Source of the DNA: Corallococcus sp. CA049B
Lineage (GTDB): Bacteria; Myxococcota; Myxococcia; Myxococcales; Myxococcaceae
NCBI RefSeq assembly: GCF_003611685.1
Contig: NZ_RAWC01000041.1
Location: forward strand, 1-53,140
DNA: 53,140 bases
Direction of reading: 5' to 3'
Shown here: one piece after another, positions 22,985-29,490 of the stretch
Layout: the number at the start of each line of letters is the position of its first letter
How positions within the stretch are numbered: position 1 is the first letter of the stretch
The notes under the pieces: generated by a model
Databases searched by the model: none
The model's input: only the letters and a program-made list of their open reading frames with translations
Told to the model about the DNA's origin: nothing
Made by a program: the position numbers and the translations under genes

Positions 22985-23094
22985 CGCTAGAGCCTACCCT
23001 CAAGCGGGCCGCCAGGAGTTCGCCAACAAGGTCCGCCTTCGAGGGTGCAGCGATGTGGCTCGATTGGATGCAGGAGCGGAGGGCAGGTCGGGCC

Positions 23095-23412
23095 CGGAAC
23101 GCTCAGAACCTGTCCGACAGTCGGACAGGATTCGCGGCAAGCAGTCCGAGGCCACGCCAGTCCACCAGGTCAGCGACGTCATGCGTGCGCGAGCGCAAGG
23201 TCGTGACACGGGGAGAGGGGCCGCCCGGGTCCGGTTCGCTCAAAACCTGTCCGACAGTCGGACAGCTTTTCGAAGCATGCGGTCCGAGGTCGCGCTGGGC
23301 CGTCGGTCGAGCAATGTCATGCGTGCGTGAACTCCAGGGATGGACTCGGACAGAGGCACCCGCCTGGGACGGGTTCCCTCAAAACCTGTCCGACAGTCGG
23401 ACAGGTTTCAGA
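23095..23412. repeat. Three tandem roughly 138-bp repeats, each containing the near-perfect palindrome CTGTCCGAC-A-GTCGGACAG
   Basis: The palindromes lie at 23110-23128, 23247-23265 and 23386-23404. Each is preceded by (c/g)ctcaRaac and followed about 60 nt later by a gtcatgcgtgcg-like box. The array sits in the roughly 750-bp non-coding gap between proC and the DUF481 gene. Confidence 0.8.
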
Positions 23413-23735
23413 CACCTGAGGCCCGGGGGCCGCGCTGGCCGACGGACGATGCGGACGGTGGGCCTTCGCGCTCATGTCAGACCCCAGTGGTTGGATGGCC
23501 ATGCTGGGACGAGGAGGGGACGGGGATGGGGAAAGCGAAGCTGACGCGTCTCTATGACGTTTGTCGGGACACGGCGCACGAGGCGCTGCGGTGGCTTGCT
23601 GCGCGGGACCTTGGGGGCCAGTGCCCCAAGAACAATTCTCGCGCTGTGACAGTGGATGCGTCGTCGACGGAGGAGATGCGTCCTCCCGCGCCTTGTTTGC
23701 GCGCCCGATGCGTCAACGCGCTGCTTGCCGCCCAC

Positions 23736-25697: not shown

Positions 25698-26363
25698 ATG
25701 GCAACCGACAACAGGAACGCAGGCGCGCAGGGGGAGCCCTCCTCGCCCGCCGTGAAGAACGCCCAGGCCGGTGCGCCGGGCGCCACCTCGCAGGGGCAGG
25801 AGCCCAGGACGGGCGCTGGCATCAGCCGCCGCGAGTCCCCGGCCCCCGCCATCGGGAGGGAAGCCGCGCCCGTGAGCCCGTTCGGGCTGCTGCGTCGCAT
25901 GATGGAGGACATGGACCAGCTCGTCACCGGCTTCGGAGGCCGGGGCATTGCCGCCCGGAGCGGCGTGCTGGACGAGGGCCTCTGGTCGCCACAGGTGGAC
26001 GTGCTGGAGCGGAACGGAAGCCTCATCGTGAAGGCAGACCTGCCGGGGATGAAGCAGGAGGACATCTACGTCGAGCTGCAGCCGGACCTGCTCATCATCG
26101 AAGGCGAGCGCTCCTTCGAGCTGGAAGAGGAGGAGGAGGCCGAAGGCATCTGGAGCCTGGAGCGCAGCACCGGGCTGTTCCGCCGCGCCGTTCCGCTGCC
26201 GGAAGGCATCGACACGGAGTCAGTCCAGGCGCACTTCGAGAACGGCGTCCTGGAGGTCTCCCTGAAGCTCCCGGAGGAGCTGCCCCAGGGCAAGCGCATC
26301 GAGGTGAAGGGCGGTTCGCGCGAGCAGGCCCGCCGGATGACGCGCGGGAAGCCCATCCACTGA
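25698..26363 (+). CDS. Hsp20/alpha-crystallin family small heat-shock protein
   Basis: GGAGGA lies upstream of the ATG at 25698. The alpha-crystallin domain reads WSPQVDVLERNGSLIVKADLPGMKQEDIYVEL...AVPLPEGIDTESVQAHFENGVLEVSLKLP. Confidence 0.8.
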   Translation: MATDNRNAGAQGEPSSPAVKNAQAGAPGATSQGQEPRTGAGISRRESPAPAIGREAAPVSPFGLLRRMMEDMDQLVTGFGGRGIAARSGVLDEGLWSPQVDVLERNGSLIVKADLPGMKQEDIYVELQPDLLIIEGERSFELEEEEEAEGIWSLERSTGLFRRAVPLPEGIDTESVQAHFENGVLEVSLKLPEELPQGKRIEVKGGSREQARRMTRGKPIH

Positions 26364-26379
26364 GGGAGGGGCGCCTGCG

Positions 26380-27075
26380 TCAGTGCGTGTGGCGGCGGCC
26401 CTCGTCCTCCACGACGGCCGCCGCCACCTTCTCCGATGAAGCGCGAAGCTCCCACTCGGAAGGCGAGTGCCAGGACTCGAAGGCGAACAGCTTCCGCATC
26501 AGCTTCCCGGCCTGATAGCCGGGGCGCAGCTCGATGGCGTCGAACATCCACGACAGCGCCTCGTCCGCGAAGGTGTACCAGGCCTCCTCGCAGCCCGTGG
26601 CGTCCATGGTGAGGGTCATCGTGGTGACGATTCCCTCCGCCAGGGCCAGCGTCCGGATGTCATTGTCGTCCGGGCCCGAGGGCAGGTCCCGCTTCAGCGC
26701 CTGGAAGTGGGCCTCCAGCTTGAACAGCCATTCACGCGACCGCTCCAGCGCGTCGATGATGAGCTGGATGTTGTATTCCACGCTCATGTCCGGCGTGGGC
26801 TTCTGCCGGAAGAAACGGTGACACCAGCAGTAGCCGCCGAAGCTCTCATTGCCCAGATACAGCCCCGTCTCCGTGTACCAGGGCCCCAGGTTCTGGTTGA
26901 GCATCCACTGGATGTGTTTCGCCATCGTGTCGTGCTGCTCGTCCGTGAGCTTGCGCGTCCCCGGGGGCACGCGCGGCGCCAGGTATTCACGCAGCATCCG
27001 GATGAGCTTCTCCGGGTCATACCCCTCCAGGCTGTCGCGGATGAGCCGCCAGTGCCCCAGGGCTGGCCGGCTCAT
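26380..27075 (-). CDS. Unknown-function protein, paralogue B of a tandem pair (231 aa)
   Basis: It shares W(R)xIRDSL.xY.P..L, LGPWY.E.GL.LGNE..GGYCWCH.FF.Q.P, NIQL..DALER and CEE.WY blocks with the upstream gene. ATGA overlaps the upstream stop. Confidence 0.6.
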   Translation of the reverse strand: MSRPALGHWRLIRDSLEGYDPEKLIRMLREYLAPRVPPGTRKLTDEQHDTMAKHIQWMLNQNLGPWYTETGLYLGNESFGGYCWCHRFFRQKPTPDMSVEYNIQLIIDALERSREWLFKLEAHFQALKRDLPSGPDDNDIRTLALAEGIVTTMTLTMDATGCEEAWYTFADEALSWMFDAIELRPGYQAGKLMRKLFAFESWHSPSEWELRASSEKVAAAVVEDEGRRHTH

Positions 27076-27737
27076 ACGGCCACCTCCGCCACCCGCGCCG
27101 CCGCCTCACGGAGCACCTCCGGGGGAGGCGAGATCCAGGACGTGAAGACGAAGGCCGTGTCCAACTGCTCCAGCGTGGCCTCCGACAAGGGCAGCCCCAT
27201 CGCCTCGATGCACCACGTCATGGCGTCCTGCGCGACCTGGTACCAGGTCTCCTCGCAAGACGTCGTCTCCGCCGTCAGGTCCACGGTCCGCACCAGCCCT
27301 TCCGCGAGCGCCTGCGCCCGGAGAGCCTTGTCGTCAGCCGCCAGCTCCAGCTGACGGCGCGAGGCCTGATACACGCCGTCCAGCGCGTACAGGAACGAAC
27401 GGATCCGCTCCAGCGCGTCCAGCATGAGCTGGATGTTCTCATCCACATCCAAGGTCCGATGCGGCGGGTTCTGGTTGAAGAACGAGTGGCACCAGCAATA
27501 GCCCCCCAGCACTTCATTGCCCAGGGGCAGGCCGCTCTCGATGTACCAGGGACCCAGCTCGGCCTGGAGCAGGTCCTGCACGGCGTTCTTCGCCTGCTTG
27601 AGCCGGCTGGTGTGGATGCTTCCGGTCCGCAGGGGGGCCAGGGCCTCCCTCAGCCGGGACGCCAGCGATTGAGGTGAGTAGGCATCCAGGCTGTCGCGGA
27701 TGCGGCGCCACGTGAAAGCCGAAGCGTTGCTGCTCAT
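27072..27737 (-). CDS. Unknown-function protein, paralogue A of a tandem pair (221 aa)
   Basis: It is about 40% identical to paralogue B. Its start overlaps the fic stop (ATGA). Confidence 0.6.
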   Translation of the reverse strand: MSSNASAFTWRRIRDSLDAYSPQSLASRLREALAPLRTGSIHTSRLKQAKNAVQDLLQAELGPWYIESGLPLGNEVLGGYCWCHSFFNQNPPHRTLDVDENIQLMLDALERIRSFLYALDGVYQASRRQLELAADDKALRAQALAEGLVRTVDLTAETTSCEETWYQVAQDAMTWCIEAMGLPLSEATLEQLDTAFVFTSWISPPPEVLREAAARVAEVAV

Positions 27738-28471
27738 TCAGGCACCTCGTTGCGGCACGGGGCGTCCGGCCCCGCGAGGGTCCGGGCCAGCAGCCTCGCC
27801 AACCGCGTGTAGTTCACCGCGTCTCCCGGCCGCTTGGGCCACAGCACCACAGGCGCCAGCGGTGGCGTGGGCAGCCGGCCCCGGCGCAGCATGTACTCCA
27901 GCCACAGCCGCGCCGCGCGGGCGTTGCCGTCCGGGAAGGGGTGGAAGAAACACAGGTCCAGGTACAACCGCGTGGCATGTGCCACCGGGTGACGCTCTTC
28001 CCGTGCGTCCGCTTCCACCTTGTCGCGGAAGGCCGCCTCCAGGCCGGGCGCGTGCGCATAGCGGTGCGCGCCACCCCACGCGAAGGCGTCCCCGGTGCGG
28101 AAGCCCGTGGGCCCGCCCAGCAGCTCCGACTGGACCTCCACCATCCGGGCGAAGGTCAGCGGCTCGCCCGCGTCCGCGAGCCGCCGCACCCGGGCCAGGG
28201 CCCGCTCGAAGCGCTCCGTCCGCGCCAGCCCCCAGGCTTCATGGGCCGGTGCGTCATGGCGGTGCAGGAAGTCCTCCTGGGCCCCTGTCTCCCGGAAGGG
28301 CTGCCGCGCCGCCGCCACCAGGTCCGCCCGGAGCGAGGGCAGCGCCCAGTCCAGGGCGCGCGTGGCCTCCCGGTGAGGCTCGAGCTGCTCGGTGGGGGAC
28401 GGGGCTTTCACTCGGGGTCCGGGACGAAAACAGGGGGCGGAGAGCCCAGCATGGACGGGGCCGGGTGACAA
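27734..28471 (-). CDS. fic: Fic/Doc-family protein (putative AMPylase or related nucleotidyl/phosphocholine transferase)
   Basis: The Fic motif HPFPDGNARAAR (HxFx[DE]GN[GA]RxxR) is embedded in FFHPFPDGNARAARLWLEYMLRRG. The ORF has a TTG start in the track, so the true start is uncertain. Confidence 0.7.
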   Translation of the reverse strand: MSPGPVHAGLSAPCFRPGPRVKAPSPTEQLEPHREATRALDWALPSLRADLVAAARQPFRETGAQEDFLHRHDAPAHEAWGLARTERFERALARVRRLADAGEPLTFARMVEVQSELLGGPTGFRTGDAFAWGGAHRYAHAPGLEAAFRDKVEADAREERHPVAHATRLYLDLCFFHPFPDGNARAARLWLEYMLRRGRLPTPPLAPVVLWPKRPGDAVNYTRLARLLARTLAGPDAPCRNEVPE

Positions 28472-28569
28472 ACACCCCGGGCGATGAGGCCCTCCCGTGG
28501 GTCACGGAGTGGAGCCTTGGCTCACAATTGCGTAAACAGGCCGTTCTGGCAGCAGGGAGAAGGCACTGA

Positions 28570-29490
28570 ATGAAGACGTTCCTCGTGGTCAACCCGCGCA
28601 GCGCCAACGGGCAGACGGGGAAGCGATGGGTGGAGATCTCCGCGCAGGTGGGCAAGGTGCTCGGTGACTTCGGGTCCGGCTTCACCAGCGGCGGCATGGA
28701 TGCGGCGCGTCTTGCGCGGCAGGCCATTGACGACGGTTATGAGTGCATCGTCGCGGTGGGCGGCGACGGCACGCTCAACGAGGTCACCAACGGCTTCTTC
28801 CGCGACGGACAGGTCATCAACCCCCAGGCCACGCTGGGCCTGCTGCCCCGAGGCACGGGCGGCGACTTCCGCCGCACCTTCGGGTGGGACCTGGAGCTGA
28901 CGTCCGCGCTGGAGCGGCTGCGCACGGAGAAGACCGAGCCCTTCGACGTGGGGCGGCTGGAGTTCACCGGCAACGACGGCAAGCCGGCCACGCGCTTCTT
29001 CGCCAACATCGCCTCGTTCGGCGTGAGCGCGGTGGTGGCCCGCGAGGTGAACCAGGGCAGCAAGGCGCTGGGCGGCAACCTGAGCTTCATGTGGGGCACC
29101 GTGAAGGGCCTCATCAAGTACCAGGAGCAGCAGGTGCGCCTCACGGTGGACGGCGGCGAGCCGGAGGTGGTGAGCGTCACCGCGGTGGCCGTGGCCAACG
29201 GCCGCTACTTCGGCAGCGGCATGTTCGTGGCGCCGGAGGCGGTGACGCACGACGGCCTCTTCGACGTCACCATCTGGTCCAACTACGGCCTGTCCGACTT
29301 CGTCCTCAAGTCCAAGGGCGTCTACAACGGCGACCACGTCACCTGGAAGGGCACGCGCCGGCTGCGCTGCCGCACGATCCACGCGGAGCCGCTGACGGGC
29401 GACGTGTTCCTGGACGTGGACGGCGAGACGCCGGGTCGGCTGCCCTGCACCATGACGCTGTTGCCGGGCGCCATCCGCCTCAAGGTGTAG
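28570..29490 (+). CDS. Diacylglycerol-kinase-family lipid kinase (YegS/DagK catalytic domain)
   Basis: The sequence reads MKTFLVVNPRSANG...GYECIVAVGGDGTLNEVTNGF and carries the GGDG ATP-binding motif. Confidence 0.8.
   Translation: MKTFLVVNPRSANGQTGKRWVEISAQVGKVLGDFGSGFTSGGMDAARLARQAIDDGYECIVAVGGDGTLNEVTNGFFRDGQVINPQATLGLLPRGTGGDFRRTFGWDLELTSALERLRTEKTEPFDVGRLEFTGNDGKPATRFFANIASFGVSAVVAREVNQGSKALGGNLSFMWGTVKGLIKYQEQQVRLTVDGGEPEVVSVTAVAVANGRYFGSGMFVAPEAVTHDGLFDVTIWSNYGLSDFVLKSKGVYNGDHVTWKGTRRLRCRTIHAEPLTGDVFLDVDGETPGRLPCTMTLLPGAIRLKV

Follow-up and report, generated by a model that had tools for sequence, protein, structure and literature searches.

A split Fic enzyme with a duplicated, previously undescribed partner domain in Corallococcus

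Fic enzymes modify the hydroxyl groups of Thr, Tyr or Ser residues. To our knowledge, how most bacterial Fic enzymes are released from auto-inhibition, and what they target, is largely unknown. The question arises at a locus of Corallococcus sp. CA049B, within a 53,140-nt stretch of contig NZ_RAWC01000041.1 (hereafter, the window), where three minus-strand open reading frames (ORFs) lie head to tail: a Fic catalytic subunit with a class II-like fold (27734..28411), paralogue 1 as the upstream partner copy (27072..27737, 221 aa) and paralogue 2 as the downstream copy (26380..27075, 231 aa). An earlier note on this DNA had described a fic ORF coupled through ATGA overlaps to two paralogues of about 40% identity. 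All of this held on inspection: start and stop codons overlap by 4 nt as ATGA at both gene junctions (GAATGAGC and GTATGAGC), the paralogues share 43% identity across 215 residues (E = 5e-60), and both contain the two shared blocks that had been pointed out, LGNE..GGYCWCH.FF and T(S/G)CEE.WY. What, then, are two related proteins doing beside a single Fic enzyme? We conclude that, rather than a classical toxin-antitoxin pair, the three genes represent a two-domain Fic enzyme that was split and then duplicated.

Neither paralogue matched a family in Pfam, NCBIfam, PADLOC, PHROGs or the PDB in profile or structural searches, in line with the absence of a described family suspected at the outset, and literature searches (by locus tag and for Fic-associated domains) returned no description of the partner domain or of the locus. 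Paralogue 1 is 100% identical to the NCBI hypothetical protein D7W82_12500. A word-indexed homologue search with a paralogue retrieved 24 proteins, from Myxococcaceae only, and another such search with the broad alignment A3, in which the number of candidates was capped, gave little beyond the close Corallococcus proteins. When alignment A1 served as input to an exhaustive profile search (cut-off E ≤ 1e-3), 214 cluster representatives at 50% identity were returned, 70 of them at E ≤ 1e-10. Many of these matches are 406-550 aa long, with the partner domain in the N-terminal ~220 residues and a Fic domain (PF02661) bearing the motif HPFxDGN[A/G]RxxR in the C-terminal half; one such protein, P0076, was picked up independently by the Fic search and by the partner search. 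Because of these fusions, we regard the paralogues as stand-alone versions of a domain that usually makes up the N-terminal half of proteins in this Fic subfamily.

The linkage extends to loci in which the two domains are encoded separately. We scanned 34 loci in all six frames with hidden Markov models of both domains, including 11 Myxococcaceae genome loci (L001-L011), loci reached through Fic or partner proteins (Hyalangium, L012; a Planctomycetota metagenome-assembled genome, MAG; three metagenome contigs) and 17 loci that a partner pattern from the narrow alignment A4 picked out of metagenomes. The same Fic subfamily was adjacent to, or fused with, the partner in 33 of the 34, spanning Myxococcaceae, Hyalangium, the Planctomycetota MAG and soil metagenomes; in the remaining one (L027), the contig ends right after the partner. 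The refutation that the earlier note had envisaged, namely a known family unrelated to Fic and without synteny, is thus not what we found. Gene order is Fic then partner in L001-L012, i.e. the Corallococcus/Pyxidicoccus/Hyalangium group, and always partner then Fic outside it, either within a single ORF or in genes that overlap. Upstream partners in other phyla measure 160-260 aa, and even those only 18-21% identical to paralogue 1 (P0172 and P0164) lie directly upstream of Fic. The fusions and the consistent linkage show that the partner works with the Fic domain, and almost certainly on it. In one locus (L026 1377-4859), the frame of a partner-Fic fusion stays open for ~700 codons ahead of the partner domain, which could reflect a far longer multidomain protein or a mere open frame in GC-rich DNA.

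How did a second partner copy arise? Eight Myxococcaceae loci, from seven named Corallococcus genomes and a Myxococcaceae MAG, share Fic, both paralogues and both ATGA overlaps, and with overlaps and gene order repeated in this way, the trio is not a chance arrangement. Conservation of the three genes, which the earlier note had proposed to examine, therefore stands within this group; across the wider set of loci, the conserved unit is instead the pair or fusion, and the trio results from a Corallococcus duplication. Pyxidicoccus and Hyalangium have Fic and one partner, and two further loci (L009 and L010) have Fic and paralogue 2, with paralogue 1 absent. Since adjacency or fusion is seen in 33 of the 34 loci, the ancestral unit is one Fic and one partner. 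In a neighbour-joining tree, the duplication falls within Corallococcus and postdates the split from Pyxidicoccus, and the loci devoid of paralogue 1 are nested among those that carry it; the copy was therefore lost twice.

The two copies have since had different fates. Paralogue 2 is present and intact in the window and in all ten fetched Corallococcus-clade loci (L001-L010). Paralogue 1 of C. coralloides KYC2213 (L006 6001-6456) has an in-frame internal deletion of ~70 aa that takes out the T..EE.WY motif and leaves 151 aa, with paralogue 2 intact in the same strain, and versions of 141 and 186 aa occur in other strains. Median pairwise dN/dS is lowest for Fic (0.27), followed by paralogue 2 (0.42) and paralogue 1 (0.54); all three genes are under purifying selection, with paralogue 2 as the conserved partner and paralogue 1 as a faster-evolving, dispensable copy. 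The chromosomal neighbourhood is alike across three genera, and a tblastn search of plasmids and phages with paralogue 2 as the sole query returned no match; the locus is inherited vertically at a fixed site and is not a mobile module.

The window Fic scores 36.2 bits against the Pfam Fic model PF02661, above the gathering score of 24. The frame is open upstream to a TTG at 28471 (27734-28471, 245 aa); the GTG at 28411 is probably the real start, as annotated orthologues have the corresponding 225 aa. The canonical Fic signature is HxFx(D/E)GNGRxxR. Its counterpart here, the motif noticed earlier, is HPFPDGNARAAR (27908..27943, minus strand; residues 177-188, read from the sequence), which keeps the His, Phe, Asp, first Gly, Asn and both Arg residues and has Ala in place of the second Gly. 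GNAR is the rule across this Fic subfamily and GNGR occurs in a few members. With Ala at this position, AMP transfer by the window Fic is something we infer. Two metagenome fusions (L022 and L023) have the signature loop HPFDDRNGRSAR, in which Arg replaces the first Gly, and their Fic domains may be inactive or altered-chemistry members.

In class II Fic proteins, an inhibitory helix with the motif (S/T)xxxE(G/N) precedes helix alpha1 in the same chain (PMC3667792). The earlier note had found no convincing helix of this kind in the window Fic, a verdict that we revise: the string T62-G-A-Q-E66-D67 (28271..28288, minus strand; 245-aa ORF numbering), located through AlphaFold2 secondary structure, occupies the class II position and departs from the motif at its last residue only, where Asp stands instead of Gly or Asn. 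The structural context came from a chimera with paralogue 2 as its N-terminal and Fic as its C-terminal part, which mimics the natural fusions and was modelled with fusions and orthologues as alignment rows (mean predicted local distance difference test score, pLDDT, 93.3; predicted template modelling score, pTM, 0.68). In this model, Fic folds into the helical FIC core plus a beta-hairpin flap; TGAQED corresponds to residues 273-278, with T62 at the N-cap and E66 in the first turn of the helix just before alpha1 (275-287), which is followed by helices 293-311 and 318-329 and by the flap (340-349). In a model-based comparison, some 200 of the 225 Fic residues could be superposed on structures of class II, as compared to 141-147 on those of classes I and III. 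Foldseek agrees with a class II-like fold, and FICD is among the closest structures to the modelled Fic. The window Fic thus appears to be class II-like, with the position of the inhibitory helix in cis occupied by TxxxE. The string is conserved: among 60 tabulated stand-alone Fic proteins (57 covering the column), 47 have Glu at the E66 position, 42 of these with a Thr N-cap. In contrast, just 2 of 44 fused proteins do, the fusions usually reading xDGHxxFI. The residue after the Glu varies across the clade (D, E, R, A, N, T, V or I), and a Planctomycetota member (P0059) alone reads TDDQEN.

On the partner side, two blocks stand out. The family-wide motif T-x-x-x-[D/E]-[A/S/T]-W-Y takes the form T159-SCEET-W165-Y166 in paralogue 1 (27240..27263, minus strand) and T160-GCEEA-W166-Y167 in paralogue 2 (26575..26598, minus strand; sequence and alignments A1 and A3), and a Cys/His cluster is held by the block LGNEVLGGYCWCHSFF in paralogue 1 (27477..27524, minus strand) and LGNESFGGYCWCHRFF in paralogue 2 (26809..26856, minus strand; sequence and alignment A1). 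Across 151 cluster representatives and in paralogue 1 numbering, conservation reaches 78% for T159, 91% for [D/E]163, 98% for W165, 87% for Y166 and 89% for W175, followed by 93% for F198, 97% for S200, 95% for W201 and 94% for P204, while upstream W64 (97%), C81 (88%), H84 (82%) and S85 (72%) are also conserved. In Myxococcaceae, the Cys/His cluster takes the form CWCHS, and in fusions WCCxxHS; the Hyalangium partner has lost it. That the cluster binds a metal or senses redox state is speculation. In the Planctomycetota and L015 loci, homology of the partner can be recognised over no more than its C-terminal ~100 residues, so that the C-terminal half, with T..[D/E]AWY and F.SW.P, is the conserved core of the domain.

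The partner motif superficially fits (S/T)xxxE, and we considered it as an inhibitory helix supplied in trans. This candidate was downgraded on three grounds. In the two models at hand—the chimera and an all-helical AlphaFold2 model of paralogue 1 (pLDDT 85)—the T..EE.WY motif forms the loop of a helix-loop-helix joining two long helices, and its Thr closes the preceding helix without capping the acid-bearing one. The residue after the acid is Ala, Ser or Thr in the 151 representatives, never Gly or Asn. Finally, the motif is retained in proteins lacking a Fic domain. Four clusters of ~510-aa proteins (P0121, P0123 at L035 1950-3464, P0132 and P0138) combine the partner domain with a conserved C-terminal domain of ~300 aa and keep the partner motif in full (GNESFGGCWCHSP, T.C.ESWY). 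We rejected the ~300-aa domain as a hidden Fic (hhalign probability 0.4%, no Pfam match), and P0123, the only one of these proteins for which the neighbouring genes were checked, has no Fic gene nearby. Retention of the motif beside a non-Fic domain fits a module with its own function rather than an active-site plug. In a further protein (P0113, 328 aa, JGI metagenome), a TIGR02996-type N-terminal segment (LVYADWLEERGE...) precedes the partner domain.

Which role do these features suggest for the partner? Our preferred reading is a gating subunit, ahead of a large antitoxin, a target-recruiting subunit and a substrate, in this order. We propose with moderate confidence that a class II-like, self-inhibited Fic has the partner as its obligate, non-catalytic subunit; that the partner gates the self-inhibited active site and thereby determines when the enzyme is on is a more tentative proposal. 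Since the domain is the N-terminal half of the Fic polypeptide in most relatives, each paralogue would bind the Fic subunit stoichiometrically, in a non-catalytic role, and ATGA translational coupling would keep the amounts of Fic and partner matched. The partner would dock through its invariant aromatic and acidic surface (T..[D/E]AWY and F.SW.P) and, once docked, gate the active site, with the Cys/His cluster as a possible sensor; it would not act as a labile antitoxin that plugs the site with a Glu. The analysis shows domain identity, fusion, synteny, duplication history and motif conservation; the formation of a complex, the transfer of AMP and the direction of regulation are what we infer beyond that.

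Several observations weigh against a gating subunit. Since Ala takes the place of the second signature Gly, both the reaction and the choice of nucleotide are putative, and since the TxxxE string ends in Asp instead of Gly or Asn, so is auto-inhibition. The chimera's pTM is only moderate. Most fused relatives have no Glu in the N-terminal helix of Fic, so that the partner could supply the inhibitory acid. And overlapping genes, together with a Fic that is never seen without a partner, suit a toxin-antitoxin reading equally well.

That reading, in which a large and atypical antitoxin neutralises a growth-arresting Fic in trans, its motif acid (91% conserved in T-xxx-E/D) replacing the class I inhibitory Glu, is the best-placed competitor, albeit an unlikely one. 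Corallococcus would then carry two antitoxin copies. Besides the 4-nt overlaps, the consistent co-occurrence in the 34 loci and the missing Glu of fused relatives, it is favoured by the partner lying immediately upstream of Fic in non-myxobacterial loci, the usual toxin-antitoxin order. Class I FicTA modules (VbhA/VbhT, EcFicA/EcFicT and AntF/Fic-1) likewise are two-gene operons in which the genes for a Fic and a non-catalytic partner overlap, and the partner here similarly has a conserved T-xxx-acid string. However, their antitoxin gene is small and upstream, whereas the partners in the window are 221 and 231 aa long, downstream and devoid of a DNA-binding domain; this bears out the earlier view that the trio is not a classical Fic/antitoxin pair. 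Moreover, the class I antitoxin gives an (S/T)xxxE(G/N) helix, whereas the partner presents T-xxx-[E/D]-[A/S/T] in the turn of a helix-loop-helix, with the modelled geometry and the following residue described above, and does so in Fic-less architectures, too. The window Fic also has a TxxxE string of its own. VbhA/VbhT (PMC3667792) remains a precedent for neutralisation, as does the Sofic-AS1 anti-phage module, in which AS1, encoded downstream, counteracts the Fic protein (PMC12249575). The latter resembles the present locus in pairing a Fic with a downstream partner; yet AS1 is short, and the window locus has no defence-island or mobile context, being inherited vertically at a fixed site, with no plasmid or phage match for paralogue 2. 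PADLOC models SoFic, PDC-S04 and PDC-S24 gave partial, weak matches to the Fic core (E 4e-7 to 2e-3), those to SoFic (1e-5 to 1e-7) reflecting generic Fic similarity only, and the partners matched no PADLOC defence system model.

Ranked next, and doubtful, is a target-recruiting subunit: the partner would bring a substrate to the Fic flap, as the tetratricopeptide repeat (TPR) domain does in FICD/HYPE, and the two paralogues would serve two targets. Consistent with this, the partner is N-terminal to a class II-like Fic in fusions, as the TPR is in FICD, which is itself among the closest structures, and the paralogues have diverged to 43% identity yet kept their core motifs. FICD/HYPE, SoFic SO_4266 and BT_2513 are class II Fic proteins that carry an accessory domain at the N-terminus. 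The present system differs from these in that the accessory domain is a separate, duplicated, downstream gene and belongs to an undescribed fold family, not to the TPR; furthermore, the inhibitory string ends in D rather than G/N and the loop reads GNAR rather than GNGR.

Another proposal, improbable at present, makes the partner a new sensor domain whose Cys/His cluster responds to metal or redox state and switches Fic allosterically between inactive, AMPylating and possibly de-AMPylating forms. FICD, which is switched by oligomerisation, offers a likeness. If true, the two Corallococcus paralogues would be alternative input or target channels for one enzyme, and the Fic-less carriers would make the module a portable regulator of other effector domains. 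It is very improbable that the paralogues are substrates, with Fic AMPylating the conserved Thr (78%) or Tyr (87%) of the T..EEAWY loop, and with auto-modification in cis in the fusions (auto-AMPylation being a common Fic read-out; PMC3667792), given that fusion to the enzyme in most relatives and retention of the same motif beside a non-Fic domain would be unusual for a pure substrate and that nothing points to a partner activity that modification would regulate.

Upstream of the Fic operon, a 98-bp divergent intergenic region (28472..28569), which presumably contains the operon's promoter, separates it from a plus-strand gene for a DAGK_cat/YegS_C lipid-kinase-like protein (28570-29490). This divergent layout is kept in Corallococcus, Pyxidicoccus and Hyalangium and is absent from non-myxobacterial loci; it may reflect shared regulation or merely inherited synteny. 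On the other side of the locus, most Corallococcus have a convergent Hsp20 gene. A scan of 26200-28700 revealed no sigma-70 promoter or terminator consensus, as expected for a myxobacterium of 70% G+C, and the whole window gave no Rfam match. A separate feature of the window lies at 23081-23449, flanked by genes for a P5C reductase and a DUF481 protein: a unit of 48-90 nt directly repeated in three copies, at spacings of 137 and 139 nt, with the near-palindrome AACCTGTCCGACAGTCGGACAG in every copy. The rest of the window has no further copy (0 expected by chance), and Rfam gave no match to the unit, which might serve as a triple operator or represent a small repeat element.

The Fic protein itself adds one more member to a known class, and it is the split, permuted and duplicated arrangement that constitutes a new variant of regulatory architecture. 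The partner defines a previously undescribed domain family of ~214 clusters (50% identity) tied tightly to one Fic subfamily and merits a domain entry of its own; that it is occasionally found fused to another, unknown domain hints that the module can be reused. For the study of Fic control, the natural split form in Corallococcus offers separable subunits together with two natural variants of the partner.

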